In this document: positions 1,447-15,423 of the stretch, piece after piece | Position numbering within the stretch: position 1 is the first letter of the stretch | Layout of the letters: each line of letters begins with the position of its first letter | DNA from: a virus | Direction: 5' to 3' (one strand) | UHGV virus genome: UHGV-0169625 | DNA length: 44,509 nt | Notes under the pieces: generated by a model | Told to the model about the DNA's origin: nothing | Databases searched by the model: none | What the model saw: the letters and a program-made list of their open reading frames with translations, nothing else | Made by a program: the position numbers and the translations under genes

Positions 1447-1463
1447 GGTATTTTGACCCTTAG

Positions 1464-1486
1464 TAAAAAGGCCCAATGAAGGGCCT
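1464..1486 (-). terminator. intrinsic terminator-like hairpin between SSB-like gene and polymerase start
   Basis: minus-strand stem AGGCCC/GGGCCT, 6-nt loop, then UUUUU; lies about 18 nt upstream of the polymerase ATG so may attenuate rather than fully terminate. Confidence 0.4.
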
Positions 1487-1506
1487 TAGTTAAATTAATT
1501 CAGATA

Positions 1507-2133: not shown

Positions 2134-2196
2134 AGTTCAGCCCTCATTAAGTTTAGATTTTCAGTTTACTCCGGGAACTGCCCGGCCAGTGATTTA

Positions 2197-2225
2197 ACTA
2201 TAATAGTTAGCTATTCAGGTGTCAA
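2197..2225 (-). promoter_or_regulatory. sigma70-like promoter (leftward) with embedded palindromic operator
   Basis: minus strand TTGACA (2225-2220), 17-nt spacer, TATAGT (2202-2197); plus strand 2200-2217 reads ATAATAG-ttag-CTATTCA; about 57 nt upstream of the GTG start at 2133. Confidence 0.5.
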
Positions 2226-2229
2226 CACT

Positions 2230-2385
2230 TTATTTAAACGTTTCTTTTGTCATACGGATAATTTTCGCCGACTCGTCTCTAATTACCATACTGAATACAC
2301 GGTATACGGCTTTGCTCCGGCCTAGCTTTGCTCCGTTTCGGTGTTGTTGTAGATAGCTTTTATGCAGTTCTTGAATCGTGCTCAT
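2230..2385 (-). CDS. hypothetical small protein (51 aa)
   Basis: ATG at 2385 overlaps stop of upstream nuclease gene (ATGA), GGAGGA SD 7 nt upstream; track ORF 2230..2415 trimmed to this start. Confidence 0.4.
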   Translation of the reverse strand: MSTIQELHKSYLQQHRNGAKLGRSKAVYRVFSMVIRDESAKIIRMTKETFK

Positions 2386-3647
2386 TCCAAATCCTCCTCT
2401 GTTACCTGATTCCACTCAGGACGTTTGTCGTCCGCCGTTGCGACACATGGTGCACCCGGCTTACGTGTGATAAATGGCTCAAGCGCTGCCATCTCATCTG
2501 CCGAAAGAACTTTTGCCGCCTCCGTAGGGGACATCAATACCTCTTTTTTGAGAATGTCTCCGTGCGACACTTCAATCGCATCGGCGTCTTTCCACGCACG
2601 ATTACCAGGACGACCTTCTACCAGCTTGTACCCCGGTACTTTTTTACCGGAATGCAACGCAGCAGCCATCGCTTTCTCAACCTTGTCGATGTGCTGGCGC
2701 AACAACGGCAACTTCTCATACTCAGCTACAAGTTGCTCTGGCGTAAGTTCCAGTGCAAAGTCGTCTTCCAGTTCTTCCGCCAGTACATCGTTAACGGTTT
2801 TTGTACGCGCGGCGCACTGTTCCGAGAACCGACACCACTGACAACCGTCGACAGACGGCCGGAAGTCCGACGCTTTCAGGTTCTTCTTACCTCGGGAATA
2901 AGCATCAAGCGCTAACAGTGCTCGTTTCTGCGCGAACTTAGCGAACAGTTCCAGGCCTTCAACCGAGATGTCCCACTCCGACGCACCGCCCGCGTACGGC
3001 TGGAAGATGACCAGACGAACAGTCGTTATGTTATAACGTCTCTTGAGCCGGCGATAAACACCGAGAGCATAGAGCATAAGCTGCTTGTTTTCTTTCGCTT
3101 CGACACGATGCCGTCCAGTTTTCAGGTCGCCGATGATAAGCATGTGCTCGTCGGTGTTAGCCAGTTCCTGGACGGCAACAAGGTCAGCAGTTCCGAACGT
3201 CTCAACGCCTTCATACCCCGGATGCAACACCTCAGTAAGATTGACACGCATCTCGAGCTTCGCATAAGTCGCTACGTCGATAATCGGTTTGCAGTAGTCC
3301 GTGTACTTGCGCACCTGCTCAATCATGTCCGCCGTAATCAGTACCGCGCCTTTCATCGGACTGATTAGTGCCTTAATCTGACCTTTACCTTCATCCAGCA
3401 CGTAAGCGCCGACTTCACGCTCTAAAGGCAACGCAGTGCCTTTGATGTACTGGTTTAGATGGACCTCAGCTATGGTGTGCATGGCTGTACCTAATACAGC
3501 GGCTTTACCCGACGTGTTAGGAATATCTTTTTCACAAGCCAGAGATGCACTGCACGCCAGCCACTTTTTAGCGCCTGATGGTGACAGTAATGCGTGAACA
3601 TCGTTATTGCCACCGCGTTCCTTTAAAATCATACCCTGTTCTCCCAC
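2382..3647 (-). CDS. PD-(D/E)XK nuclease, Cas4/RecB-like (DUF2800-type) with 4-Cys cluster
   Basis: 421 aa; IIGDLKTGRHRVEAKENKQLMLYALG matches the D...ExK...QxxxY nuclease core; N-terminal Cys plus C-terminal CQWCRFSEQC resemble the Cas4 Fe-S cluster ligands; ends in acidic tail VTEEDLE. Confidence 0.6.
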   Translation of the reverse strand: MGEQGMILKERGGNNDVHALLSPSGAKKWLACSASLACEKDIPNTSGKAAVLGTAMHTIAEVHLNQYIKGTALPLEREVGAYVLDEGKGQIKALISPMKGAVLITADMIEQVRKYTDYCKPIIDVATYAKLEMRVNLTEVLHPGYEGVETFGTADLVAVQELANTDEHMLIIGDLKTGRHRVEAKENKQLMLYALGVYRRLKRRYNITTVRLVIFQPYAGGASEWDISVEGLELFAKFAQKRALLALDAYSRGKKNLKASDFRPSVDGCQWCRFSEQCAARTKTVNDVLAEELEDDFALELTPEQLVAEYEKLPLLRQHIDKVEKAMAAALHSGKKVPGYKLVEGRPGNRAWKDADAIEVSHGDILKKEVLMSPTEAAKVLSADEMAALEPFITRKPGAPCVATADDKRPEWNQVTEEDLE

Positions 3648-3901
3648 TGGTCAATTAAATGCCTGGTCTTGTGGTCGCAATGTAAGGCCCACCCATACAT
3701 CGACTCGAAGACATAAAAGTCAGGTTTGGCGAAAGTTGTGCGCTTAATCTGTGACACGTGACGGCCAATATCTTTATGCCGTGGTACTTTGCCTAAGTAC
3801 GCCATCTCTTCCATCTGGTGAGCACCGGACGGCGCACGCAATAGCCATAGCGCCTCTGTGTTATCCCGCCTGTCGACGGCGCGGTAGAGTTGGTAAATCA
3901 T
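3629..3901 (-). CDS. hypothetical protein (90 aa)
   Basis: track ORF in minus-strand operon, overlaps start of downstream nuclease gene by 19 nt; no recognisable motif. Confidence 0.35.
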   Translation of the reverse strand: MIYQLYRAVDRRDNTEALWLLRAPSGAHQMEEMAYLGKVPRHKDIGRHVSQIKRTTFAKPDFYVFESMYGWALHCDHKTRHLIDQWENRV

Positions 3902-3944
3902 AATTCCGACCCTCAGTTAAAGCGGCCCGAAGGCCGCGGGATAG

Positions 3945-4463
3945 TTATTCTTCTTCGAAATACTTGTTCTTGATTGCCATCAGGCGTTCCAGGTACTCGG
4001 CCAGGTCTTCGTCTTTAATCGCAGCAATCTTCATCTTCTTACCCGTGAACTCCTCCAGCAGTTCATCAGAATCGTCGCACGCGGCGTCGCTCGGGCCTTC
4101 GTTAATCGCATCGTCGATAGCCTGAATCTGGTCACGAAGAGACTGATAATCGACTTCCTTATCCTCTTCCGGCTCTGGCGTTGGTTCCTCTACTTTAGCT
4201 TTACGCGGCTTGCGTTTCGGCTTCTCTTCCTCCGCAGGTTTAGTGTCGACGATGTCTTCACCTTCAACCGGGATTTCTTTCGCCTTCTCGACTTCTTCAA
4301 GTGCTTTAGCCAGTTCTTTTTTAACTGTCTCTACCCCAGTTACCGCGACGTCAACAGTCAATTCACCTACAGATTTGCTAGTCGGTTGTTTCACACTGTT
4401 TGCAGCAATCAGTTCGTGGGCGACTACGAAACGTTCCAGTAATACTAAGAATTTCTCTAACAT
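3945..4463 (-). CDS. hypothetical acidic protein (172 aa)
   Basis: ATG at 4463 with GAGGAGAG SD; first gene downstream of leftward promoter 4495-4523; Glu/Asp/Lys-rich, ends YFEEE. Confidence 0.5.
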   Translation of the reverse strand: MLEKFLVLLERFVVAHELIAANSVKQPTSKSVGELTVDVAVTGVETVKKELAKALEEVEKAKEIPVEGEDIVDTKPAEEEKPKRKPRKAKVEEPTPEPEEDKEVDYQSLRDQIQAIDDAINEGPSDAACDDSDELLEEFTGKKMKIAAIKDEDLAEYLERLMAIKNKYFEEE

Positions 4464-4494
4464 TTGTTTCTCTCCTCTCGTTTGGTATGGGCTA

Positions 4495-4523
4495 ACTATA
4501 ATAGTGAACTATTCACATGTCAA
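4495..4523 (-). promoter_or_regulatory. sigma70-like promoter (leftward) with embedded palindromic operator
   Basis: minus strand TTGACA (4523-4518), 17-nt spacer, TATAGT (4500-4495); plus strand 4498-4515 reads ATAATAG-tgaa-CTATTCA. Confidence 0.55.
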
Positions 4524-4541
4524 TGGGCTTTTCTAAAATAA

Positions 4542-4559
4542 TTAATATGGTACTATTCA
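4542..4559 (+). promoter_or_regulatory. operator-like site overlapping extended -10 (TGgTACTAT) upstream of the HTH regulator gene
   Basis: TTAATAT-ggta-CTATTCA (degenerate copy of the recurring palindrome); TACTAT at 4551-4556 preceded by TG; weak -35; about 30 nt upstream of ATG 4588. Confidence 0.35.
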
Positions 4560-4587
4560 CATATCAACTAACTAAGGAGTAATTGTC

Positions 4588-4803
4588 ATGCAACCATCTG
4601 AACTAGGCATCCGTGTAGAAAAACGCCGTAAAGAACTCGGCATCTCCCAGCGCCGTCTGGCGGTGCTGACCGGGGTTTCCCAGGGCGCAATTAACCAGCT
4701 GGCACTTGGGGTAACCCAGGACGTCCGCCCGGCAACGCTGTTTAAACTGGCGGAAGTGCTGGAGGTAGACGCCAAGTGGCTGGCGCTAGGTGAAGGGGCT
4801 TAA
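4588..4803 (+). CDS. XRE-family (Cro/CI-type) helix-turn-helix transcriptional regulator
   Basis: 71 aa; ISQRRLAVLTGVSQGAINQLALG is a classic HTH_3 signature; AGGAG SD; the only plus-strand gene inside the minus-strand replication block, divergent from operator-bearing promoters. Confidence 0.8.
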   Translation: MQPSELGIRVEKRRKELGISQRRLAVLTGVSQGAINQLALGVTQDVRPATLFKLAEVLEVDAKWLALGEGA

Positions 4804-4820
4804 CGCCCCTTTCTTTTTAC

Positions 4821-7061
4821 CTATTCCAAATCCTCTTCTGTCACTACCAGCATTTCATTCGGTTCGTATATTGTCTTCGGTCTTAGTCTATCCCCTATTC
4901 TTTCAGGTATACGATACGTTCTCGGTACTACTTCGCCATTAGCATCACAGCCTAGCATTAGTTCACCATCTTTCAGCATTTTATCAAGATGGGTGTTAGT
5001 CACAGAAAAGTCACCGGAACGGGCCACTATCTGCTGCTGAGTAAAACCGCGACCTGTGTCATCTGACTGTTGCAGGTCTTCCAGTGCCGAAAGTATCGAC
5101 TCCTTCCTTACTTCATCCCTGCCGCGTTTAACTTCTTCCTTTACTTTTTGTTTACCTTCGTTAGTTAACCCTTCTTCCCGCTCCTTCTCCTCGTCAGTTT
5201 TGAACGGCTCGAAGCCCCACGGCATCAGAACAAGCGCCTTGTGTGGTTCCGGCAGGTCGAGGTTTACGATTGTGCCGTATTCCTCTGTGCTGCCCAGGAA
5301 CTCAACAGCACGGTACTCTTTCGGCGGTGGTGCTTCACGGAACTGTACAGACTCCAACACCATGCCAACCGTTTTCTGTTGAGGGCCGTGCTTAAATTTT
5401 GAGTGGTATACGTTTATCTGACGGTCGGTTGCGCGTTCAATTGTCAGTTCCACGTCGACCCCAGCATACAACGCCCCGCTGCCACGGGCTTTCTTTCCAC
5501 CTTTCGGTGTATGGTGGACAACACCCACCGCGGCTTTGGTTGCGTCGCGTACTTCTTTCAGGATGGCGATAACCTTACCCATGCCGATTGCCGTTGATGA
5601 ACTGTTCTCGTCGAACTTATCAATCGTCAGGGCCAGTGTCTGGTTGAGAGTATCGAACGCGACCATGCCGATGGGTTCGCCACCCGCAGTTTCTCGCATT
5701 AGCTTAATCAGGCTTTTCAGTTTGCCAACTTCGCCCATATCGATGACATGTACATAATATTTACCTTCCTCGCCGTATTTAGCCGCGAGTGCATCAATAC
5801 GGGTGCGTGTGGCAGCACCGCCCTCGCCGTCAATATAGAAATGGTGGCAACGCTGTGTATCAGCGCCGGCAAACCGGTACCCGGCGGCGCTCAGGTACAT
5901 CATCCCCAGCGTATAGAAGGATTTGTACGTGCCGGATTCCCCGACGATGTCCCAGATGCAATCCGAGGGCATGTACCCTTCAACGACGAAATCAGCCTTT
6001 ACCGGTTCAGGTAACTCGTCCTCCTCTGAGCCTTCGTCATCTTCCAGGTCGTCCAGGCTGCATGAAACGGACTCTCGCGCACCCCAACCGATAGCCTCTG
6101 CTACTTCACTGAATGGCAGCCCGGTCGCATCGCACGCATACTTCCACACCTCTTTCGGTGACATGCCTTCGGTTGCCGTAATGTCGGTGTCGTGAATCAT
6201 GGTTACGTTTGGCGCGGCGTAACCCTCTCGCGGAAAGCACAGCAGGAAATCATCCGGGCGTGGCGTCGGGTCGCTGTAGTTTTCTGCGTGTTCTGGTGTG
6301 GCAGGCATTTTAAGGCCGCGGGGTGTCATAATACCGCCATACTCGAATGCCAGTGCTTCAAACGCATCGGTAAACGCAGTGCGCAGTTCTTCCGGTATCT
6401 GGTAATCCGATGCGCTGCTAACGTCAACGGCGGGGATGCCTTCCAGCAGTTCTTCCGGGTCAATCAGGTCGTTGCGGCGCGACCAAATAACGGTAGAGCC
6501 AACCGGCGGCAGGTACATCGGCTGCGACAGAGTGAACCCGCTGCGGTCAGCGCCCATGCCTTTGAAGAAGTGCTCGAGCAATCCGTGGCGAACGCGGATG
6601 ATGTCGCCACCTTCGACCGGGCGACCAAGCGGCATAACGACGCGAAAGCGCGGTGACCCATCGGTATGTGATGCCGTGGTATAGAGGCACATGGCCAGGC
6701 GGCTGCGCTTAACCAGGTGCACAGCTTCCTGATACTCTTCCGGCGTTGCACTGTCGAAGTCCAGGTAGGCCAGTGATGATTTGCTTACAGAGGCGTCGCA
6801 GCGATAGAAGAAGCCTTTACGCGCTTGCTTAAAGTCCCCGGTTTCCTGGTCTTTTACGGTGCTGTGTGTTGAGTCGCACGCGGCTGTGATATAGCCGGGC
6901 GCGGTCTTAGGGTTAACCCCATCACGAACAGCATCGAGCGGCCGGATTAACTCTTTCAGGTCGTCCAGTGTTGCCGTGTGTGTGGTTCTGACGTTTATAT
7001 CCTTTTTCTCTGCCCGCGCGTTGCGACGAGACCACGAGTAGGATAAAATTACATCGGACAT
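4821..7061 (-). CDS. putative primase/replicative ATPase (prim-pol-like N-terminal domain plus P-loop-like ATPase domain)
   Basis: 746 aa; LAYLDFD (DxD) and TASHTDG resemble archaeo-eukaryotic primase motifs; central GESGTYKS P-loop-like and VHHTPKGG segments; ends in VTEEDLE; assignment by motif only. Confidence 0.5.
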   Translation of the reverse strand: MSDVILSYSWSRRNARAEKKDINVRTTHTATLDDLKELIRPLDAVRDGVNPKTAPGYITAACDSTHSTVKDQETGDFKQARKGFFYRCDASVSKSSLAYLDFDSATPEEYQEAVHLVKRSRLAMCLYTTASHTDGSPRFRVVMPLGRPVEGGDIIRVRHGLLEHFFKGMGADRSGFTLSQPMYLPPVGSTVIWSRRNDLIDPEELLEGIPAVDVSSASDYQIPEELRTAFTDAFEALAFEYGGIMTPRGLKMPATPEHAENYSDPTPRPDDFLLCFPREGYAAPNVTMIHDTDITATEGMSPKEVWKYACDATGLPFSEVAEAIGWGARESVSCSLDDLEDDEGSEEDELPEPVKADFVVEGYMPSDCIWDIVGESGTYKSFYTLGMMYLSAAGYRFAGADTQRCHHFYIDGEGGAATRTRIDALAAKYGEEGKYYVHVIDMGEVGKLKSLIKLMRETAGGEPIGMVAFDTLNQTLALTIDKFDENSSSTAIGMGKVIAILKEVRDATKAAVGVVHHTPKGGKKARGSGALYAGVDVELTIERATDRQINVYHSKFKHGPQQKTVGMVLESVQFREAPPPKEYRAVEFLGSTEEYGTIVNLDLPEPHKALVLMPWGFEPFKTDEEKEREEGLTNEGKQKVKEEVKRGRDEVRKESILSALEDLQQSDDTGRGFTQQQIVARSGDFSVTNTHLDKMLKDGELMLGCDANGEVVPRTYRIPERIGDRLRPKTIYEPNEMLVVTEEDLE

Positions 7062-7119
7062 GTTGTATTTCCTTCAGCAAGTAATTTGGCCTCGGCGTTC
7101 ACCGCGTCGGGGCTTTCTT

Positions 7120-7353
7120 TTATTCCAGGTCTTCTAAAGTAGCGGTCATTCCGCGAACTTCAGCAACGGCGCTATATTTCCCGCCAACATTTTTCACGAC
7201 ACCAGATTTAACCAGCACCTTCAACGACCCTTCAATAATGGCTGAACTATAGTACTTAAAATAACTACGGCGCAAGTCAATAACGCTACACGACCCTTTT
7301 TTACGTGTTAACGAAACGACTGCTGTAAATACGCGTGACTGAAACTCGGTCAT
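7120..7353 (-). CDS. hypothetical protein (77 aa), C-terminus LEDLE
   Basis: track ORF, start overlaps upstream gene stop; no domain recognised. Confidence 0.45.
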   Translation of the reverse strand: MTEFQSRVFTAVVSLTRKKGSCSVIDLRRSYFKYYSSAIIEGSLKVLVKSGVVKNVGGKYSAVAEVRGMTATLEDLE

Positions 7354-7520
7354 TTCACGTTCTCCTTAATCCATGCTTCCACTTTCTCCGGGTCAAACGT
7401 ACCTGGCTGACGACGGCCCATAATGCGGATGCAGCAATCCGGGAACTTCCCGCTCTTTAACCAGTTATTCAGCGTGCGACGGGTAACCCCGATACGCTCA
7501 GCTACCTCATTCTGTGTCAT
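7350..7520 (-). CDS. AlpA/Xis-like HTH DNA-binding protein
   Basis: start moved to ATG at 7520 (MTQNEVAERIGVTRRTLNNWLKSGKFP...EAWI) because the predicted -10 overlaps the track start at 7553; GAGGG SD. Confidence 0.6.
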   Translation of the reverse strand: MTQNEVAERIGVTRRTLNNWLKSGKFPDCCIRIMGRRQPGTFDPEKVEAWIKENVK

Positions 7521-7552
7521 TCTCAAACCCTCATTATTAGTTAACGAAACCA

Positions 7553-7581
7553 AGTATACATTGCGAATAATGGGAAATCAA
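7553..7581 (-). promoter_or_regulatory. sigma70-like promoter (leftward) for the minus-strand early operon
   Basis: minus strand TTGATT (7581-7576), 17-nt spacer, TATACT (7558-7553). Confidence 0.45.
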
Positions 7582-7960
7582 ACATAATCGCACCTATTGA
7601 CATTATGAAAATCTTCGTTTAAGGTGCTTCTATATCTTAGTTACTTTGATTCCTGTTCACCTTGTAAAACCGCTTAAAACGCAGCTGCGCGCAGCGCAAG
7701 CAAAGTGTTAAGCGAAAGTTTACTGAACACGAGAATTATCGTAACTTTCCTTCCTAAGTATCTCCGGTTGCCCTGGGCAAGCTCTATTCACATCGGCAGC
7801 ATATCTCTTAAGTATCTGATTTTCTTAATGTGCCGTAGATTCGCAACCGTAAAAATGTAACGATTATTGGGCAGGCTTAGGGCCTGCCCTTTAGTTACCA
7901 AGTAATAAGAATAAAGGCACAACCTTCCCAGAAGAATCACAACGGCAACGTAACTATCTC

Positions 7961-7989
7961 TTGCACGCCCCAACATAATAGGATACTAT
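7961..7989 (+). promoter_or_regulatory. sigma70-like promoter (rightward) with embedded palindromic operator
   Basis: TTGCAC (7961-7966), 17-nt spacer, TACTAT (7984-7989); 7975-7992 reads ATAATAG-gata-CTATTCA; about 35 nt upstream of ATG 8024. Confidence 0.5.
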
Positions 7990-8023
7990 TCACTTATCGA
8001 AACGAGACAGAGGAGTGAGGGTT

Positions 8024-8215
8024 ATGTTTAAGAAGGGTCAGTTGGTTAAATGCGCCGACGGTAAACACGGTGTGATTGAATTAAAATCCGCTTTATTTCC
8101 GGGAGAGTACCTAGTTACTGTGCAAAAGGTGAGAGGAGTAAATTCGGCGGCATACGTAGCGGAAGAGAATTTAAAACTCATCGGCAACAATTTTAAATTC
8201 AAAGAGGTGAAGTGA
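8024..8215 (+). CDS. hypothetical early protein (63 aa)
   Basis: ATG at 8024 with AGGAGTGAGGG SD; first gene of plus-strand early operon. Confidence 0.5.
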   Translation: MFKKGQLVKCADGKHGVIELKSALFPGEYLVTVQKVRGVNSAAYVAEENLKLIGNNFKFKEVK

Positions 8216-8424
8216 TGGAAGAATTAATTTGCGTGAAAAGTAAATTAACGGAGTTTAAGCCGGGGCGTTTATACAGCAGTTACCCAACACCTGATTACGA
8301 TTATGTTATTGATGAAACAGGAGGCGAATGGGTAGTTGACCAGTTCGGAGATGATGAGTTCGGTATATTTGATGGTGGACTGAGAGCCTCATTCACAACG
8401 GCATCGGATAAAGAGGCGAAGTGA
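8212..8424 (+). CDS. hypothetical early protein (70 aa)
   Basis: track ORF, start overlaps upstream stop (translational coupling). Confidence 0.45.
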   Translation: MMEELICVKSKLTEFKPGRLYSSYPTPDYDYVIDETGGEWVVDQFGDDEFGIFDGGLRASFTTASDKEAK

Positions 8425-8627
8425 TGCAAGAATTATTTGAAGAACTGAAACATCATGAACTAGAAGAAGTGCATTTCATAATTGGCCATTACAAAGTCAC
8501 TTTATTAGACGGTACAACCATTTCTTCAGGGGCAAGTGACGATTTGTTGAAATTTTTACGTTTACTACGAACGGCATCGAATCATGATGCGAGTGTCGAC
8601 GACTCTGAGGGAGGTTGCCGTGAATAA
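8421..8627 (+). CDS. hypothetical early protein (68 aa)
   Basis: track ORF, start overlaps upstream stop. Confidence 0.45.
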   Translation: MMQELFEELKHHELEEVHFIIGHYKVTLLDGTTISSGASDDLLKFLRLLRTASNHDASVDDSEGGCRE

Positions 8628-8681
8628 GTTTGTTTTAATCATCAGCGCCGTTTATGTGGTGCACGCGTTGCGGGGGTTAGT

Positions 8682-8837
8682 ATGAGAATCCGTATAACTG
8701 ACCGCAGGCTTATAGATTTCGGTATCTCGGTAGGTGATGTTTTTCTGGCGTTCAGCAGCAACCATTATGGTTTTATGATTGAGTACAAAGGGTCGTTATT
8801 GTTCGTGTATCGGGATGAGTGCGAGGTTCTGGTATGA
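8682..8837 (+). CDS. hypothetical small protein (51 aa)
   Basis: ATG ORF below track cutoff; stop overlaps next ATG (ATGA). Confidence 0.3.
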   Translation: MRIRITDRRLIDFGISVGDVFLAFSSNHYGFMIEYKGSLLFVYRDECEVLV

Positions 8838-8977
8838 GAGAAGCATTTGAACGGTGGGCCGTCATCGAGGGGCTGCCTGTTAATAAGGGTTCGAAGAAAG
8901 AGTACCTGAACGTTAAGACGCGTCTCGCGTGGCGGGCGTGGAAAGCTGGTGTGCAAGCTGTGATGAATACGAGGTGA
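8834..8977 (+). CDS. hypothetical small protein (47 aa)
   Basis: ATG ORF below track cutoff, coupled to flanking ORFs. Confidence 0.3.
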   Translation: MREAFERWAVIEGLPVNKGSKKEYLNVKTRLAWRAWKAGVQAVMNTR

Positions 8978-8980
8978 GAT

Positions 8981-9181
8981 ATGAGTAAGTGGATTAAGTG
9001 CAGTGAGCAGATGCCCGCTCCTTTCTCTCATGTACTTGTGACCGATGGGGGAGAGGTTGAGATTAAATGGTTCGATGATGATTCGGATGAGTGGGATAGT
9101 TGGGATGAATTCAACTCTGTCATAGACAACGAGGATATAACGCACTGGAGGAAATTGCCTAAACCGCCGAAACTGGTGTAA
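8981..9181 (+). CDS. DUF551-like small protein
   Basis: 66 aa; MSKWIKCSEQMP...ITHWRKLPKPP resembles the DUF551 pattern (W-I-x-C ... THW-x-x-LP-x-PP) from recollection. Confidence 0.5.
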   Translation: MSKWIKCSEQMPAPFSHVLVTDGGEVEIKWFDDDSDEWDSWDEFNSVIDNEDITHWRKLPKPPKLV

Positions 9182-9316
9182 CAGGTCAATAGGTTACTAT
9201 TTGACTGAGTGACTTACGCTGCTACACAGCAGCGTACAACTTTAGATTAGTGTCGTCAAAAAGCGACACTTTCACCGAACGCAACAATCGAAGCGACTAT
9301 TGCAGGAGATGCAACA

Positions 9317-9487
9317 ATGAAACTGAATGACATCGTAACCTGGACCGGTAGAAACGGAGAAAAGCGATTCGGGCTTATTGTTGCGTCAGACGGCAACAAG
9401 TACCGTGTTATGCGATGGCGTCAGTGGGCGAGACGCCCGAGATACTACTGGATTCGCAGCGAACGATTATCGTTAAAACACCAATAA
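9317..9487 (+). CDS. hypothetical small basic protein (56 aa)
   Basis: ATG with AGGAG SD; follows two hairpins after the 8981..9181 gene. Confidence 0.35.
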   Translation: MKLNDIVTWTGRNGEKRFGLIVASDGNKYRVMRWRQWARRPRYYWIRSERLSLKHQ

Positions 9488-9494
9488 AATTTAC

Positions 9495-9523
9495 TTGCAC
9501 GCTAGGATAGAATAGGCTACTAT
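9495..9523 (+). promoter_or_regulatory. sigma70-like promoter (rightward) with embedded palindromic operator
   Basis: TTGCAC (9495-9500), 17-nt spacer, TACTAT (9518-9523); 9509-9526 reads AGAATAG-gcta-CTATTCA. Confidence 0.5.
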
Positions 9524-9554
9524 TCATTTACACGAACGAGAGGAGAGACAGAAG

Positions 9555-9677
9555 ATGTACAGCGAATTTGATTTGTGGGACGTGGTTCTTATGTGGGCCT
9601 CCGGGGAAGATGTTGTTTGCGACGGCGACACATTAAGTATCATATGCGAGGAGCCAGAAGATGTTCCTGGAATGTAA
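9555..9677 (+). CDS. hypothetical small acidic protein (40 aa)
   Basis: ATG with GAGAGGAGAG SD; 3' end overlaps next gene. Confidence 0.3.
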   Translation: MYSEFDLWDVVLMWASGEDVVCDGDTLSIICEEPEDVPGM

Positions 9678-9879
9678 ATCCTACGATGGCTATTGGGTGC
9701 TGACTAAAAACGACCTGTACCACCTCAAAGAAGACGGCGACGAGAGCCGCTGCTACATAATAGACGACAACGGCACTGAACTCGATGTCTATTACACCGG
9801 GTATGGTCGATGGGCGTTATCGGCGGACGACGACTTTGTGTTCGAAGAATATAACGGGGAGGAGCCAGAAGATGAGTAA
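9661..9879 (+). CDS. hypothetical acidic protein (72 aa)
   Basis: track ORF; start lies in 16-nt repeat GAGGAGCCAGAAGATG that supplies SD and ATG. Confidence 0.45.
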   Translation: MFLECKSYDGYWVLTKNDLYHLKEDGDESRCYIIDDNGTELDVYYTGYGRWALSADDDFVFEEYNGEEPEDE

Positions 9880-10186
9880 CAAAAACGAGGTATTCGAGTA
9901 CCTGATTGACCAACTACGGCAGCAGGTAAATAACAACCAGTGCGAAGACCTGGCGCATGAGGTGCAGTCACTTAAGAATCAGTTACGTGATGCGTCGGCG
10001 CAGATTAAGGAGTTGAAGCTGGTGCTGGCAAAAGCTACAGGTGACGTAGAGGCGTACAAACTTATCCGCGAACAGGAGCAATCCGGTTGCCGTAAGGAAG
10101 ATACTCAGGAATGTGAGCACGTGTGGAATAGGTACATTGTACACCCTCACAGAAAGATATGTTTAGTATGCGGGTTAAAGAAATGA
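9872..10186 (+). CDS. hypothetical coiled-coil protein with C-terminal Cys/His cluster (104 aa)
   Basis: start trimmed to ATG 9872 inside the second copy of the 16-nt repeat; C-terminal CEHVWNRYIVHPHRKICLVCG. Confidence 0.45.
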   Translation: MSNKNEVFEYLIDQLRQQVNNNQCEDLAHEVQSLKNQLRDASAQIKELKLVLAKATGDVEAYKLIREQEQSGCRKEDTQECEHVWNRYIVHPHRKICLVCGLKK

Positions 10187-10386
10187 CCAGCATCCTATTT
10201 ATCTGGGTATTGTCCGCAGGCCAGATGCAACTCGCGGCAGCAGAAACGTTTTATTCGATGGAGGCGTGCCAGTCAGCGGCGCGCGCCGCAGAAAACGCGC
10301 ACTTCCTGTTTCAGGGCGACAAGCCCAACGATTCAGAGGTACGCGCTATCTGCTCACCTAAGCGACTTGGTAAACAGGAGAAGTGA
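10183..10386 (+). CDS. small exported protein (signal peptide)
   Basis: start trimmed to ATG 10183 (ATGA overlap); MTSILFIWVLSAGQMQLAAAE looks like a cleavable signal peptide. Confidence 0.45.
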   Translation: MTSILFIWVLSAGQMQLAAAETFYSMEACQSAARAAENAHFLFQGDKPNDSEVRAICSPKRLGKQEK

Positions 10387-10592
10387 TTATGGTACAGAGA
10401 TACTCTAAGTATGGGTCTGACAACCATTTCGGGGACCGTCACGGGGCGTGGGTTAAGTTTGAGGACTACCAGAATCTTGACCACAAGCTGTTGGAAGTTG
10501 AAGCCGAGTTACAGAAATACAAAGACCAGTTTCCGGATTACGTCGAGTGCGCGAACTGCGGGTCAATTACACATGTGGAAGGGGTGGAGTGA
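10383..10592 (+). CDS. hypothetical protein (69 aa)
   Basis: track ORF, start overlaps upstream stop. Confidence 0.45.
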   Translation: MIMVQRYSKYGSDNHFGDRHGAWVKFEDYQNLDHKLLEVEAELQKYKDQFPDYVECANCGSITHVEGVE

Positions 10593-10897
10593 TGATTGAC
10601 GCGTATATCTATTGGAGTGGGGTAGCTTTTAATTTTACCCTTATCCCTGTGATTCTTTGGGCACTTTGGTGTTTGGTACTGTTCCCCGCCGTAGAAGCTG
10701 CTAGCATGGCGCGGTACTACCGAAGAATCGGAAAAGTTCACGGGATTAAAGTGCACAGCTGGTTCAGGCTTTTCCGCGCTAACTACGAATTGTTTGGGCG
10801 CACGTTCACAGCACAGCGGTGCTCTTACGGCTATTGGGAAGGAGTAGGGCGATGGGAAGTATTTCCTGCGGAGGCCGAAAATGAGCCTCGCAACTGA
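10592..10897 (+). CDS. small membrane protein
   Basis: start trimmed to ATG 10592 (overlaps upstream TGA); hydrophobic segment FTLIPVILWALWCLVLFPAV. Confidence 0.45.
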   Translation: MIDAYIYWSGVAFNFTLIPVILWALWCLVLFPAVEAASMARYYRRIGKVHGIKVHSWFRLFRANYELFGRTFTAQRCSYGYWEGVGRWEVFPAEAENEPRN

Positions 10898-11174
10898 TAT
10901 CCTGAAACGAAGCGGCCTTGCGCCGCTGTCACCGAGAGTTAGAACACAGATATACAAGCGCCGCCATAACGCGCTGTACCCTGAGATTCAGGCCAGACGC
11001 AAAGCGGTCCGCGCCTGTGGATTCCAGAACGGGAAGGCCGTTAACCTCGGTGAGTTTAAAACACAGGAACGGGCAGCTATTGCGAACCGGCTATTTAATT
11101 ACTGGAAATCGCTGGGATACGATGATATTCCGACGAAACCACAGAGGCGACAATACATCTGGAGACATAAATAA
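10881..11174 (+). CDS. hypothetical basic protein (97 aa)
   Basis: track ORF; last gene before the lysis cassette. Confidence 0.45.
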   Translation: MSLATDILKRSGLAPLSPRVRTQIYKRRHNALYPEIQARRKAVRACGFQNGKAVNLGEFKTQERAAIANRLFNYWKSLGYDDIPTKPQRRQYIWRHK

Positions 11175-11206
11175 ACCGTTATTAGGATAATTCCTACCCG
11201 TGGTAT

Positions 11207-11242
11207 CCTCCAGTTACTGCATACTTAATACGCACCTGGAGG
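11207..11242 (+). promoter_or_regulatory. hairpin sequestering the holin Shine-Dalgarno site
   Basis: CCTCCAG (11207-11213) pairs with CTGGAGG (11236-11242) across a 22-nt loop; the 3' arm contains the GGAGG SD located 7 nt before the holin TTG start. Confidence 0.4.
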
Positions 11243-11249
11243 ATTCATC

Positions 11250-11558
11250 TTGGATAAATTTACTGAAACAGTGACGGGGTGGCTTCTCGCCGCCGCACTG
11301 GTCGGTGGATTGGTCGGGCTAAGACAACATAAAAAGTCTATATCCGGGCCGATTGACGGACTGGTATTTCTTCTCACCGGCTTCGCGTGTGCCATTTTCG
11401 GCGCACCTCTTGCGGCTCAATGGTTCGGTATTACTGGTGAGCGCGAGATAGCTGGCCTCGGATTCATCATTGCCATTCTCTGGATGCCTATCTATTCCCG
11501 CCTTTCTGGCATCGTATCGGGCGGCGATATTGCCCGCCCAGGAGGACCGCATGACTGA
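11250..11558 (+). CDS. holin (three predicted TM segments), TTG start
   Basis: 102 aa; hydrophobic stretches GWLLAAALVGGLVGL, LVFLLTGFACAIFGAPLAA, GLGFIIAILWMPIY; immediately upstream of endolysin. Confidence 0.6.
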   Translation: MDKFTETVTGWLLAAALVGGLVGLRQHKKSISGPIDGLVFLLTGFACAIFGAPLAAQWFGITGEREIAGLGFIIAILWMPIYSRLSGIVSGGDIARPGGPHD

Positions 11559-11823
11559 GCTATTCTGGTTTGTCGTAATGCTGGCGATGGGCGCTTCGTC
11601 CCTGTTCAACGTGTATAATGAACACGTGGACGACGGGCTATTTGGGCGTGTGCTCTATATCCTGACTGCTATCGTCTGCGCCGCCGGGTGTATCCACCTG
11701 TTACAAGGCAGCATGTCACCTACGTTGCCCGAGACGTTAATCACATTAGTTGCGCTGCGTCAGATTCGTCAGGCGTGGCTGTCGTATGGAGGACATAAGT
11801 GTGTCTCGAAATATTTCAGATAA
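11551..11823 (+). CDS. holin/antiholin-like membrane protein (two TM segments)
   Basis: start trimmed to ATG 11551 (overlaps holin stop); LFWFVVMLAMGASSLF and VLYILTAIVCAAGCIHLL. Confidence 0.45.
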   Translation: MTELFWFVVMLAMGASSLFNVYNEHVDDGLFGRVLYILTAIVCAAGCIHLLQGSMSPTLPETLITLVALRQIRQAWLSYGGHKCVSKYFR

Positions 11824-12286
11824 TGGATTGCATTTCACTGCCGCATTTGAGGGGTTCCGTGGAACTGCGTATCGTGCTACCCCGAATGAGAAGTACCTGA
11901 CTATTGGTTACGGGCACTACGGGCCAGACGTAACGCCCGGAAAGACCATCACGCCGGGACAAGGACTCCTGCTACTGAATCGCGATATGGCTAAGGCCGT
12001 AGCTGCGGTTGACGCAGCAGCACACCATTCACTGGCACAGGCGCAGTTCGATGCAGTGTGCGACCTGGTGTATAACGCGGGTGCTGGTGTGATTGCAGCT
12101 ACTACAGGCACGGGTAAGGCGCTGCGTTCCGGTGATATTGCGACTCTGCGGGATAAGCTGGCGCTGTTCATCAACCAGAACGGCAAACCGTTACTTGGCC
12201 TGCGTCGCCGTACAGCCGGTCGTTTGGCGCTGTTCGACGGTAAACCGTGGCGGGAGGCGGAAGCTATCGGGAGGGCTGTTAAATGA
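11786..12286 (+). CDS. endolysin, phage lysozyme (GH24-like)
   Basis: AAFEGFRGTAYRATPNEKYLTIGYGHY matches the lysozyme catalytic region (E...D...T); start set to first ATG 11786, in-frame GTG 11801 has a better SD. Confidence 0.8.
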   Translation: MEDISVSRNISDNGLHFTAAFEGFRGTAYRATPNEKYLTIGYGHYGPDVTPGKTITPGQGLLLLNRDMAKAVAAVDAAAHHSLAQAQFDAVCDLVYNAGAGVIAATTGTGKALRSGDIATLRDKLALFINQNGKPLLGLRRRTAGRLALFDGKPWREAEAIGRAVK

Positions 12287-12413
12287 TGGACGAATATGAA
12301 GGCGTTTAGTAAACTTATCCCTACGCTGTTTGTGCTTGCATACTAAGCCCCGGTAAACCCGAAGCAGCAGCCCAAGCGGTGGAGACTGCGTAGGGTTCAA
12401 GGGCTTATGACCG

Positions 12414-12444
12414 AAACCCGGACCGCGAATCCGGGTTTTATTTT
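12414..12444 (+). terminator. rho-independent terminator after lysis cassette
   Basis: stem ACCCGG/CCGGGT with 9-nt loop, then TTTATTTT. Confidence 0.7.
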
Positions 12445-12449
12445 ACCAA

Positions 12450-12478
12450 TTGACACCTGAGACCAATCAGACGATACT
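12450..12478 (+). promoter_or_regulatory. sigma70-like promoter between two terminators
   Basis: TTGACA (12450-12455), 17-nt spacer, GATACT (12473-12478). Confidence 0.4.
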
Positions 12479-12484
12479 TAAATC

Positions 12485-12549
12485 ACCTCCTGTTCCATCC
12501 CTCTGCTCTCCAGTTTTATCCCGGCACTGACCCAGCCGGGATTTTTTTT
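12485..12549 (+). ncRNA. candidate small RNA (~65 nt) with anti-SD-like 5' sequence
   Basis: predicted transcript from promoter 12450-12478 to terminator 12518-12549; no ORF with SD; 5' region AUCACCUCCU resembles the 16S rRNA 3' end. Confidence 0.3.
12518..12549 (+). terminator. rho-independent terminator
   Basis: stem ATCCCGGC/GCCGGGAT, 9-nt loop, then TTTTTTT. Confidence 0.7.
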
Positions 12550-12571
12550 ATCTATTTTCTGCAATGACTAG

Positions 12572-12600
12572 TTGACTATTACCCTCGACCTTATTATATT
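12572..12600 (+). promoter_or_regulatory. sigma70-like promoter
   Basis: TTGACT (12572-12577), 17-nt spacer, TATATT (12595-12600); about 30 nt upstream of ATG 12634. Confidence 0.45.
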
Positions 12601-12633
12601 TACTCCATCGACAACGAGAACGGAGTAGAGAAG

Positions 12634-12831
12634 ATGAGTAACGTATCGACGATAGAAATAACCGAGGAACTTGAAGCTAAATGCATCGCGTCTGCTATGG
12701 GTGGGGATTCGGTGGAAAAACTACAGATGAGGGCCGCTGCGGGCTACATACGTAGAGCTAATTCCGCGATGACTGATGTTTTACGTAAACGTTACCTCGT
12801 GAAAGCGTTAGAAATCCTGGAGAATAACTAA
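12634..12831 (+). CDS. hypothetical protein (65 aa)
   Basis: track ORF with GGAG SD. Confidence 0.45.
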   Translation: MSNVSTIEITEELEAKCIASAMGGDSVEKLQMRAAAGYIRRANSAMTDVLRKRYLVKALEILENN

Positions 12832-12980
12832 TGAAAATCACGGATATCGAAGCATTCAAAGACGCACAACTGATGGCGCGCATCGCCGTTAGTAACCTGA
12901 GCAACAGCATTCCCGCGGACGCGTTCTGGTTCGCTGCAATGCAGACACTGAAAGCAGCTTATGCAGGAGAGAAGAAATGA
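12831..12980 (+). CDS. hypothetical small protein (49 aa)
   Basis: ATG overlaps upstream TAA; below track cutoff. Confidence 0.3.
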   Translation: MKITDIEAFKDAQLMARIAVSNLSNSIPADAFWFAAMQTLKAAYAGEKK

Positions 12981-13135
12981 GCGAACACGGTGAAGTAAGC
13001 CAACCCTTACGAGTAGGCCGTAAAGTCAGTCACACCCCGTTCCCGACACGCGAGGAACTGATGAAACGTAACAGTTTCCCGGGACCGGACAAGAACAAGT
13101 ATCTCAATCGCATGTGGGGAGAGCGTAAAGAATGA
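12977..13135 (+). CDS. hypothetical small protein (52 aa)
   Basis: ATGA coupling at both ends. Confidence 0.3.
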   Translation: MSEHGEVSQPLRVGRKVSHTPFPTREELMKRNSFPGPDKNKYLNRMWGERKE

Positions 13136-13350
13136 AAAAGTATAAATTCATAATTGGTGACAATCTTATGTATAACTCAACCCATTTGCGCCGTGTCCGT
13201 TGGTACAATCTACTATTTGTACGTGCAGGATTAGTTAACGTTATTGAGTGGGAGGGCATTGAGTCTGACGTTAAGGTGGCGGAGGGTTTTGCGCGCTTGT
13301 ACTTCAAGAAACGCGGCATGACACCGCATGTTATGGGGCACGAGTTATGA
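13132..13350 (+). CDS. hypothetical protein (72 aa)
   Basis: track ORF, coupled start. Confidence 0.45.
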   Translation: MKKYKFIIGDNLMYNSTHLRRVRWYNLLFVRAGLVNVIEWEGIESDVKVAEGFARLYFKKRGMTPHVMGHEL

Positions 13351-13592
13351 CCGACCGTGAATACGAAAAGATGATGGTAGAGGCTGTTAACGGCGGCGTA
13401 GACATCGGTCGCGTGATGCACGTCCTGAATACTAAAATCGCGGTAGCGGAGCAAATGGTTGAGTCGCTCTATGAGACACGCCGTGAACTGATTAACCGCT
13501 TCAACCTGAACAAGTGCGAACATAAGTTCGACTACAATCCGAAAGATATGTGCGGCCAGTGTGTTAAATGTGGGGTACAGAGACATGCCTAA
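13347..13592 (+). CDS. hypothetical protein with C-terminal Cys cluster
   Basis: 81 aa; CEHKFD...CGQCVKCG. Confidence 0.45.
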   Translation: MTDREYEKMMVEAVNGGVDIGRVMHVLNTKIAVAEQMVESLYETRRELINRFNLNKCEHKFDYNPKDMCGQCVKCGVQRHA

Positions 13593-13788
13593 AATCACAA
13601 TCGCATCACTCGAGCGCCGTATCCTGGTGCTTGAGTCTGAGAAACAGACGTTAGGCGGACAACTGTCAATTAACGGTGAGTTTCAACTGGAGGCGTTTAA
13701 GTTGTTGCTCGTGAAATTGAAGGAAGAAGAGCAGAAGCTACTACTTTCCCCTGAGTTCGATTACGGTGTTGACGATGAAAGCGCCTGA
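13585..13788 (+). CDS. hypothetical coiled-coil protein
   Basis: start trimmed to ATG 13585; track shows GTG alternative at 13561. Confidence 0.4.
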   Translation: MPKITIASLERRILVLESEKQTLGGQLSINGEFQLEAFKLLLVKLKEEEQKLLLSPEFDYGVDDESA

Positions 13789-13957
13789 GCCAGTAGTTAT
13801 CGATGACGTCCTGTGGAAACCTTACTCGGTTAACCACATCGACGCCGACGGGAAGAAGTTCAGCTTCTACATTTTTGCAATTAGCCGTGAACACGCCGCT
13901 TGTGTGGTCGACGATATACGAGAAACGGCGTGGCTCGGTGATGAGATAGTGGGGTGA
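13775..13957 (+). CDS. hypothetical protein (60 aa)
   Basis: start trimmed to ATG 13775. Confidence 0.4.
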   Translation: MKAPEPVVIDDVLWKPYSVNHIDADGKKFSFYIFAISREHAACVVDDIRETAWLGDEIVG

Positions 13958-13961
13958 GAGT

Positions 13962-14192
13962 ATGTTTCACGAACTAAAGATATTACCTGAGCATTTTGAA
14001 CCTGTTATGGTAGGAATCAAGCTGGCGGAACTGCGATTAAACGACCGCGATTTCAAGGAAGACGACACTCTGTGCCTGCGAGAATACGAAAACGGTGAAT
14101 ACACAGGCCGTATCGTTTACCGCCGCGTTATTCATGTTGCGGACGTAGGTGCTTACCTGCCTGGATACGTGCTATTAAGTATGGAGGATTGA
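13962..14192 (+). CDS. DUF3850/ASCH-like (PUA-fold) small protein
   Basis: 76 aa; HELKILPEHFEPVMVGIKLAELRLNDRDFKEDDTLCLREY resembles the DUF3850 pattern from recollection. Confidence 0.45.
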   Translation: MFHELKILPEHFEPVMVGIKLAELRLNDRDFKEDDTLCLREYENGEYTGRIVYRRVIHVADVGAYLPGYVLLSMED

Positions 14193-14194
14193 TT

Positions 14195-14365
14195 ATGTTC
14201 AGTGACATTAACGCAGCAATAGAAGAAGCAATCTGGCGCCGGTACAACGGCGATCAACAACGGCACTTCTGCCTGGTGCAGCGCGGTAACATGATTGCCG
14301 TAGTGCAGGACCGCGATAATAAATACCCAAATGCAATGTGGACGACGAGGAATTTCTTAGGATGA
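14195..14365 (+). CDS. hypothetical small protein (56 aa)
   Basis: ATG ORF coupled to both neighbours; below track cutoff. Confidence 0.3.
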   Translation: MFSDINAAIEEAIWRRYNGDQQRHFCLVQRGNMIAVVQDRDNKYPNAMWTTRNFLG

Positions 14366-14598
14366 TTACCAGCATTCCGAACCTGATTAAAGAATTTGGC
14401 ACGATGGCCGAGACATGCCGACAAACCGGCCTCAACGAAATGACGATTGCGAAGTACAGTAAAGACGTTAACTGTGAGCGCCACGTAATTTATAACAACC
14501 GTCTCATGACGCACGTTAAGACAAGCCCTGTGTTATTCACCCGCCGGGGTATCACTAAAACTGAGCAACGTATCGCACGAGAGGAGGGTGATGTATGA
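14362..14598 (+). CDS. hypothetical protein (78 aa)
   Basis: start trimmed to ATG 14362 (ATGA overlap). Confidence 0.4.
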   Translation: MITSIPNLIKEFGTMAETCRQTGLNEMTIAKYSKDVNCERHVIYNNRLMTHVKTSPVLFTRRGITKTEQRIAREEGDV

Positions 14599-14750
14599 AA
14601 AAGTTAACGGTGTACTGGAAGACAGGCGCTACATCAGAACTTGATGTTTTCAGCGTAACGCAATGTGAGAAGTTCTGGTACGCCGAAACATTCAACGGTG
14701 AAGTGAGAATCCCGTTAGCACTGGTAGACGGCGGATATATCACCGGGTAA
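14595..14750 (+). CDS. hypothetical small protein (51 aa)
   Basis: ATG with GAGGAGGG SD; last ORF of early block. Confidence 0.35.
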   Translation: MKKLTVYWKTGATSELDVFSVTQCEKFWYAETFNGEVRIPLALVDGGYITG

Positions 14751-14760
14751 CCGACCATCA

Positions 14761-14785
14761 AGCCCTCTACGGAGGGCTTTTCTGT
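14761..14785 (+). terminator. rho-independent terminator closing the early block
   Basis: stem AGCCCTC/GAGGGCT, 4-nt loop, then TTTCTGT. Confidence 0.6.
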
Positions 14786-14877
14786 ACATCCAGCCCAATC
14801 CCCTTATATAATCCCTTTAGACGCGTAGGGCGCGTCTGATGCGCTCTGATGGTCAGACGCATATGTCAGGGGGTTAT

Positions 14878-15423
14878 ATGAAACTTACACTTAAGCAACC
14901 ATCACCTGAGGTGGTGCAAGCTGCACATGAAGAGGCTGTTAGTGCCAACCGTCGCCGTAAACGACCGCGCGGTAAACAGAGTCTTTATCAATCATCCCGT
15001 AATTCCGCCGCGTTGTGGGACCCGGACTATTGCGACGCGTTAATCGAGTTCTTCGACCGCACGTCTTGGGAGCTTGTGCCTACGTCTAAGGGTGACGAAC
15101 GCCCGTTGATTCAGGATAAACCCCCGTCACTGGCCCGCTTCGCCTTACATATCGGCGTCACTATCCCTATTATTAAGCTGTGGCTGCGCGAGATTCCCGC
15201 ATTTGCAGAAGCCTGGGAAACCGCTCAGGCGCTGGAAGAGGCGTATTTCACTGAGACAGGCGCTGCCGGTATCTCCGCTACGTTTGCTGCGGCTAAGCTG
15301 GGCTTAAGCAAAGAGAAACCTGTTGAATCCTCCGAAGAAACTGCGCCGACTGAGATTGTGTTCACCGTAGCGGAGCCGGTAGGTAAAATCGTTACCACGA
15401 ACATGGGTGAGGTAGGGGAATGA
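14878..15423 (+). CDS. terminase small subunit (putative)
   Basis: start trimmed to ATG 14878 (AGGGGG SD); basic RRRKRPRG patch; stop overlaps terL start; assignment mainly by position. Confidence 0.5.
   Translation: MKLTLKQPSPEVVQAAHEEAVSANRRRKRPRGKQSLYQSSRNSAALWDPDYCDALIEFFDRTSWELVPTSKGDERPLIQDKPPSLARFALHIGVTIPIIKLWLREIPAFAEAWETAQALEEAYFTETGAAGISATFAAAKLGLSKEKPVESSEETAPTEIVFTVAEPVGKIVTTNMGEVGE

Follow-up and report, generated by a model that had tools for sequence, protein, structure and literature searches.

Directly downstream of the lysis genes of a Kagunavirus-like phage, a promoter-like site is closely followed by a strong terminator. The question that this locus raises is whether it gives rise to an RNA of its own and, if so, on what that RNA acts. 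The stretch of DNA analysed, here called the window (44.5 kb), is a complete or near-complete Kagunavirus-like siphovirus genome (Guernseyvirinae). In a preliminary description, a small RNA of about 65 nt with a copy of the anti-Shine-Dalgarno (SD) sequence of 16S rRNA had been proposed, with a conceivable role in the timing of lysis. The best explanation, for which we see an even chance, is a trans-acting sRNA that is transcribed independently and would pair through its CU-rich 5' end with GA-rich SD/AUG regions.

Genomic setting and conservation of the unit

The plus strand of the window carries small genes of unassigned function from 8024 to 11174, followed by two holin-like genes and the endolysin gene (11786-12286). 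The locus lies 3' of the endolysin gene, directly after the holin/endolysin cassette as first described, and is followed on the same strand by small genes from 12634, the terminase (14839, 15420) and structural genes. Annotations of phages Jersey, Schulenburg, SE2, and others show the identical gene order. The following features were defined.

12413-12444, plus strand: T1, intrinsic terminator that ends the endolysin operon (hairpin 12413-12439, then UUUUAUUUU)
12450-12478, plus strand: P1 promoter (-35 TTGACA at 12450-12455, 17-bp spacer, -10 GATACT at 12473-12478; 10 of 12 consensus positions)
12485-12549, plus strand: predicted 65-nt small RNA (start from promoter geometry, 3' end in the U tract)
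12485-12517, plus strand: pyrimidine-rich, single-stranded 5' region of this RNA, the candidate seed (A-CCUCCUG-UUC-CAUCCCUCUG-CUCUCCAG-UUUU)
12518-12549, plus strand: T2 terminator (hairpin 12518-12542, AUCCCGGC / GCCGGGAU with a 9-nt loop; U8 at 12542-12549)
12572-12633, plus strand: P2 promoter and GA-rich leader (TTGACT-17-TATATT, 10 of 12 consensus positions; leader ...ACGAGAACGGAGUAGAGAAGAUG, ATG 12634)

The promoter TTGACA-17-GATACT between two strong intrinsic terminators, as initially reported, is present, with folding energies of -14.4 kcal/mol for T1 (z -3.3) and -14.3 kcal/mol for T2. The consensus match of P1 alone is at chance level, with 15 promoter-like sites in positions 1-15000 against 15.0 expected. 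A comparative set of ~130 related loci from IMG/VR and GenBank was reduced to 33 distinct versions of the RNA region, in which three lineages could be told apart: type-A Kagunavirus, including the window, type-B Kagunavirus (L004, L030), and Jerseyvirus. In all three the -35 element is TTGACA or TTGACG and the -10 element GATACT or CATACT, with exactly 17 bp between them; the Jersey homologue reads TTGACG-17-GATACT. In sequence, the type-A spacer shares only ~55% identity with that of Jersey, and the type-B spacer is essentially unrelated. Hexamers and 17-bp spacing that are kept while the spacer diverges are the pattern expected of selection on a promoter. P1 also shares TTGACACCTGA...TAAATCAC with a strong minus-strand promoter at 2225, the common parts being the first 11 nt of P1 and the 8 nt after the -10 element. 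Because of these common flanks, P1 is assigned to the phage's own promoter set. Its hexamers and spacing are presumably the same as those of lambda PL.

A 400-nt query around the sRNA locus matched 445 phage records, with explicit Kagunavirus and Jerseyvirus entries; 325 of the records are named Salmonella phages and 102 Escherichia phages. Absence from related phages had been named beforehand as an observation that would speak against the locus, and the opposite was found. The best identity of the query to phage records was 93-97%. Escherichia phage JSSK01 was 92.8% identical to the window in the region tested. The flanks are mosaic on both sides of the module, and the first gene behind P2 varies between phages, whereas the P2 leader is nearly invariant. 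Together this indicates that P1, the RNA, T2, P2, and the leader travel as one module. The locus is thus a real, conserved, unannotated promoter-to-terminator unit, a judgement on comparative sequence that is based on its conservation in the 445 records and not on the consensus matches.

Conservation of the DNA could also be explained without any function of an RNA, if the hexamers were inactive or irrelevant and the region were kept as a recombination module with the terminator and P2. The chance frequency of promoter-like matches fits such a reading, as does the identity of ~70-77% between genera over the whole intergenic block, in which the 5' part is not exceptional. However, the retention of both hexamers and their exact spacing in type-B Kagunavirus, where the spacer has been replaced, is hard to explain in this way, and the purine-poor, unpaired character of the 5' part persists across lineages. 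A complete lack of RNA function has in our view hardly any probability.

T2 is a constant part of the unit. Its stem comprises 7 pairs in the consensus of 24 variants, one of them compensatory (CG in 16, UA in 8), its U tract measures 7-14 nt in the relatives, and a U-rich patch (GUUUUAU, UUUAU, or GUUUCU) directly precedes the stem in all variants. T1 lies outside the conserved module and is part of an optional 165-nt insert (12287-12449) that is present in only some Kagunaviruses; it is absent from Jersey and many Kagunavirus relatives. In relatives without the insert the endolysin stop codon overlaps the P1 -35 element. The non-coding insert matched no Rfam family and no tRNA. With a simple terminator scanner (loop limit 8; the T2 loop has 9 nt), T1 and T2 were both missed in the window and the homologous Jersey terminator was flagged. 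T-rich sequence, made up of the T2 tract and the spacer behind it (TTTTTTTTATCTATTTTCT; 12543-12571), lies ~20-30 bp upstream of the P2 -35 element, at the position of an UP element, and the T2 tail may double as upstream sequence of the P2 promoter.

The variable presence of T1 bears on a possible role of the element in cis. T2 would then be mainly the terminator or insulator of the lysis operon, and the CU-rich stretch would mask the P2 ribosome-binding site (RBS) in read-through RNA. Only P2-initiated mRNA would be translated, and the short P1 RNA would be a by-product. In Jersey and many Kagunaviruses without T1, the element is in fact the 3' UTR of the endolysin mRNA, with the Jersey-type T2 directly after the endolysin stop codon, and the terminator-ATCT-P2 arrangement is kept even in genera without the CU-rich sequence. 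A hypothetical read-through RNA (12485-12655) pairs its CU-rich part with the P2 SD/AUG in both the minimum free energy (MFE) and the centroid fold, but the fold was not significantly better than those of shuffled sequences (z -1.65). Moreover, read-through should be rare at a terminator as strong as T2 (GC stem, 8-14 U), the window and several relatives have T1 before P1, which isolates the unit, and a cis role leaves the conserved promoter just upstream, with its correct spacing, unexplained. We consider it unlikely that the element serves in this way.

The same arrangement of promoter and terminator could be the substrate of antitermination, as in the PR'-tR' region of lambda. A phage factor would later modify the polymerase at the constitutive P1, so that transcription passes T2 and the terminators behind it and reaches the terminase and structural genes; the short RNA might have a second role as an sRNA, like StxS. 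A near-consensus promoter with a strong terminator within ~65 nt, upstream of ~26 kb of same-strand morphogenesis genes with several internal terminators, would suit this purpose. However, comparison of ten small neighbouring proteins from both sides with Pfam and PHROG detected no Q-like domain, and the Jersey annotation lists no such antiterminator. In addition, the second strong promoter P2 right behind T2 makes read-through unnecessary, the promoter spacer and the initially transcribed bases, where a Q element and a pause signal would lie, are the least conserved part, and the unit is located downstream of the lysis genes, in contrast to its upstream position in lambdoid phages. Antitermination at P1 therefore appears quite improbable.

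The predicted RNA and its CU-rich 5' region

In the preferred explanation, host sigma-70 RNA polymerase would initiate at P1, with A12485, the 7th nucleotide after the -10 element, as the predicted start, and stop at the strong intrinsic terminator T2. From 5' to 3', the product of ~65 nt would consist of an unpaired stretch poor in purines, a patch rich in U, a GC hairpin, and a long U tail. It is probable from the sequence that a discrete non-coding RNA is made. The predicted layout is that of an enterobacterial base-pairing sRNA of the Hfq type, which denotes a functional class and not a homology family: a promoter and a terminator with U tail, a single-stranded conserved seed, and a U-rich patch were all found. 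We infer the accumulation of the RNA, its binding to Hfq, and the identity of its target RNAs.

Neither the MFE nor the centroid fold of the window RNA pairs any of the 33-nt 5' region, and across 24 variants the consensus fold leaves 33-40 nt free at the 5' end, with the terminator stem as the only conserved structure. Its pyrimidine content of 82% places the 5' region among the 7 most extreme stretches of 33 nt on the two strands of the genome. Two of its motifs are near-invariant, CUCCU(G) at the predicted 5' end and the central UCAUCCCUCU, while the remainder varies; a third CU-rich motif occurs as CUCUCC, AGCUCC, or CUCUCUG, and the purine-poor composition is also kept. Between lineages the seed overall does not clearly exceed the adjoining intergenic DNA in conservation, so that the case for the 5' part is built on its invariant motifs, its composition, and its lack of structure. 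The unstructured 5' part, together with the kept hexamers and spacing and the compensatory terminator pair, agrees with the discrete non-coding unit originally proposed.

The statement that the transcript has no SD-led ORF was likewise borne out. Its coding capacity is limited to a 26-amino acid TTG ORF, which starts in the -35 element, and a 28-amino acid minus-strand TTG ORF through the terminator, neither of them credible. Indels between the lineages (+3, -4) are not all multiples of three, which rules out a conserved reading frame.

In L017/L145 (same contig: L115, L238), an insertion of ~110 nt is located between the P1 -10 element and CCUCCUG (L017 2190-2300). It has 13-bp perfect terminal inverted repeats (TTAGGCGAGTAGT...ACTACTCGCCTAA), which would add a long 5' hairpin domain, and includes a copy of the P2 -35 context (TAGTTGACTA). 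The sequence from CCUCCUG to the terminator is kept intact despite the insertion.

The match to the anti-SD tail of 16S rRNA was only in part confirmed. An exact 10-nt match, ATCACCTCCT, occurs once in the window, at 12482-12491; we estimate the chance of an exact 10-mer in 89 kb at ~0.09, and with one mismatch allowed the count is at chance. The full AUCACCUCCU was found only in type-A Kagunavirus relatives. Its counterpart is CUGCUCCUG in Jerseyviruses, CACUCCUUG in two Kagunavirus variants, and CAACCUCCUG in type B, and only the CUCCU core is general. The "AUC" of the 10-mer belongs to the start-site motif TAAATCAC and probably lies upstream of the transcription start. Mimicry of the 16S rRNA 3' tail was rejected, as identity to GAUCACCUCCUUA is neither conserved among the homologues nor fully inside the predicted transcript. 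Because the 10-mer is limited to one lineage and its first three bases probably precede the transcript, we regard the 16S mimic as an over-reading of a more general anti-SD-like, CU-rich seed.

A related possibility is a free-floating anti-SD copy that would be abundant right after infection from a promoter of PL strength and, with three motifs per molecule, would coat strong SDs genome-wide. This would mean competition with the 30S subunit and a re-partitioning of translation between host and phage, a global reprogramming rather than the regulation of a few targets. We consider it very improbable. A Rho-loading (rut) site, suggested by the C-rich, G-poor stretch, was rejected since the stretch is only ~33 nt long and is directly followed by an intrinsic terminator. 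An R-loop or replication primer was set aside on hybrid stability, pyrimidine-rich RNA:DNA hybrids being the least stable.

To search for homologues, a covariance model (R1) was built from 24 variants. It detected a single copy in the window with 99.3 bits and scored 77 bits in Jersey; in other Guernseyvirinae genera it gave only weak, terminator-driven matches of 15-27 bits. An Rfam 15 scan of positions 11500-13500 and 11 related loci yielded no family above its gathering threshold; the best scores were 23.8 and 19.4 bits for two Burkholderia families with thresholds of 50 and 49.5, respectively. No tRNA or tmRNA was detected in the window. A blastn search of 5,426 E. coli genomes gave no host homologue, and among the matches listed in a pattern scan of 185,579 species genomes there were only chance ones, with a single E. 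coli match that lacked a terminator. A literature search gave no paper on sRNAs in Kagunavirus, Jerseyvirus, or Guernseyvirinae and one Kagunavirus RNA-seq paper with gene-level data only. Reads of a vB_Eco_K1B4 time course are public (PMC12645636); RNAs of 65 nt may be lost from standard libraries.

In other Guernseyvirinae genera the same slot holds a different sequence that is not CU-rich. In L040-L052 and L175, the endolysin gene has a promoter-like site at its 3' end; a non-coding stretch comes next and is closed by a strong terminator, with ATCT and a P2-like promoter behind it. Examples of the slot are as follows.

L050, 1995-2350
L045, 1995-2290
L175, 4962-5044

The non-coding stretches in these genera are 45-350 nt long and differ in sequence; some look structured, and none matched an Rfam family. 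The slot between endolysin and P2 may be a hotspot for phage non-coding RNAs.

Leaders as candidate targets

The 5' stretch contains three anti-SD-like motifs (CCUCCUG, CCCUCUG, and CUCUCC), with which it would pair with GA-rich SD/AUG regions and block initiation of translation. The likeliest partners would be the GA-rich leaders of the phage's own promoters Py (ATG 9555), Px (ATG 8024), and P2 (ATG 12634). Besides P2, the candidates and the related promoters are as follows.

9495-9557, plus strand: Py promoter and leader (TTGCAC-17-TACTAT, leader ...ACGAGAGGAGAGACAGAAGAUG, ATG 9555)
7961-8026, plus strand: Px promoter and leader (leader ...ACGAGACAGAGGAGUGAGGGUUAUG, ATG 8024, gene MFKKGQL...), a weaker candidate
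7961-8026, 9495-9557, and 12572-12636, plus strand: cassettes/promoters
4523-4461, 2225-2197, and 42469-42441, minus strand: cassettes/promoters

Px, Py, P2, and the minus-strand leader with ATG 4463 form a promoter-plus-leader family with an extended GA-rich RBS (...ACGAGA..GGAG..AGA..AUG). The operon that Py heads extends through the lysis genes. P2 is always linked to the sRNA gene and is annotated as a promoter in Jersey; its leader is conserved despite different first genes in the relatives. The cassette leader in general is conserved across Kagunavirus and Jerseyvirus while the gene that comes first after it varies between phages, which places the recombination joints at the start codon. 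These shared cassettes point to a regulation built on a small number of portable 5' UTRs. A 16-nt junction of RBS and ATG, GAGGAGCCAGAAGATG, is repeated exactly at 9648-9663 and 9859-9874 in successive small overlapping genes, as a result of which two proteins end in ...EEPED, and a 14-nt sequence, AGAAGATGAGTAAC, is common to the gene starts at 9867-9880 and 12629-12642. Both repeats look like reused gene-linker modules.

The 33-35-nt seed was tested against the leaders with RNAduplex. The duplexes cover the SD and the AUG, with the following energies.

Window: Py -25.1 kcal/mol, Px -23.1 kcal/mol, P2 -20.7 kcal/mol, minus-strand leader -16.2 kcal/mol
Jersey: Py -26.5 kcal/mol, Px -22.7 kcal/mol, P2 -22.0 kcal/mol

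Py is the best predicted target in the window. It ranked 3rd among 196 SD-led candidate starts, and its positional counterpart ranked 1st of 196 in Jersey; these starts were collected per genome by a simple rule, are not curated genes, and include false positives. Px and P2 were roughly in the top 10-12% of the 196. The summed energy of the three leaders was compared with dinucleotide shuffles of the seed, which resulted in P = 0.028 for the window, 0.055 for type B, and 0.0007 for Jersey. Hence the base order of the seed, and not just its composition, fits the leaders, clearly in Jersey and marginally in the window. When single leaders were compared with shuffles in the window, only Py was better (matched by 2.4% of the shuffles), with P = 0.10 for P2 and P = 0.35 for Px; in Jersey the P2 leader reached P = 0.009. 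The RBS of Jersey gp54, the orthologue of the Px gene, contains a perfect 12-nt complement to the Jersey seed, and that of Jersey gp57 forms ~19 bp with two bulges by hand count (RNAduplex -26.5 kcal/mol). For Py, cognate pairs of seed and leader were more stable than cross-lineage pairs (-25.1 versus -17.3 and -26.5 versus -22.8 kcal/mol).

All of these values are subject to the caveat that any CU-rich RNA pairs on paper with GA-rich RBSs. Across ~60 loci, comparison of the seed with the variants of the Py, Px, and P2 leaders showed no consistent, clean sRNA-target covariation. Where the seed (L167) or the leader (L169, L134, L160) has changed, pairing falls to between -9 and -15 kcal/mol, and several Jersey-like phages have unrelated Py leaders alongside an unchanged sRNA. 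As clean covariation is absent, we infer the targets from complementarity. Pairing with ribosome-binding sites as the mode of action is accordingly put forward as a tentative proposal, in which doubt slightly outweighs belief. If it holds, a block at the leading RBS could shut down an entire series of genes, because the genes behind the leaders overlap start-to-stop. The c4 RNA of phage P1 acts in this way on icd-ant.

The search for partners at phage RBSs, recommended in the preliminary description, thus pointed most consistently to promoter-proximal leaders, among them those of the lysis-gene operon and of the downstream operon, and gave inconsistent results for the RBSs of the lysis genes themselves. 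The second holin SD, CAGGAGG (11539-11545), matches the 5' end of the RNA in the window, but the holin and endolysin RBSs of Jersey are without a match. The lysis genes were rejected as targets, and the suggested role in lysis timing was not sustained. A 17-nt, 88% complementary site at 8311-8327 was also rejected; it lies inside a coding region and is within the noise of similar repeats.

Significance and relation to known RNAs

The phage sRNAs characterised to date were almost all described in temperate phages or prophages (PMC12197685). Strictly virulent phages have contributed few characterised examples. For therapy and biocontrol directed at E. coli K1 and Salmonella, Kagunaviruses and Jerseyviruses are frequently considered, and their expression programme is essentially unmapped. 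If real, the RNA would be an unannotated regulator in hundreds of genomes and a handle on the timing or balance of operons. It would also offer a simple experimental system, comprising an RNA of 65 nt, three leaders as candidate targets, and naturally occurring variants of the seed.

Phage sRNAs of the StxS/6S type, c4, the P4 CI RNA, and sar of P22 have been reviewed together (PMC12197685). The unit, as predicted, shares with StxS and lambda 6S RNA a constitutive sigma-70 promoter, a nearby intrinsic terminator, the location in the late/lysis region, a hairpin with U tail, and a length of 65-80 nt. It differs from them in that it has no Rfam match, lies downstream of the lysis genes, has a separate promoter, P2, after the terminator, and has no Q-type antiterminator among its ten neighbouring proteins; furthermore, the window phage is virulent and not lambdoid. 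StxS is an Hfq-binding sRNA, and 6S RNA is the short PR'-tR' transcript of lambdoid phages.

C/U-rich anti-SD sRNAs of bacteria, such as the Burkholderia toxic sRNA RF02278, anti-hemB (RF02837), and the RsaE/RoxS type of Firmicutes, likewise consist of an unstructured C/U stretch, complementary to SDs, followed by a terminator. For RF02278 and RF02837 the scores are far below the thresholds, which makes this a resemblance of type and not homology, and unlike the window RNA all of these are chromosomal RNAs of other bacterial groups.

Like c4 of P1/P7 and the P4 CI RNA, which as same-strand antisense RNAs act on an RBS further downstream, the window RNA is a predicted small RNA on the same strand just upstream of an operon, with whose first RBS it can pair. 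Whereas c4 RNA is cut out of the operon transcript, the window RNA has its own promoter and terminator, and there is no similarity in sequence or structure (no Rfam c4 match). Its complementarity to the adjacent P2 leader is interrupted and, in the window, only marginally above that of shuffles (P = 0.10). With sar of P22, an RNA of 68-69 nt that blocks the ant RBS, it has in common that it is phage-encoded, measures ~65-70 nt, has its own promoter and terminator, and is predicted to cover an SD/AUG. However, sar is a cis-antisense RNA with perfect complementarity, and the window RNA is on the same strand as its candidate targets and would pair imperfectly. Homologous to none of these RNAs, the unit resembles StxS and 6S RNA in its predicted production and c4 or sar in its possible action.
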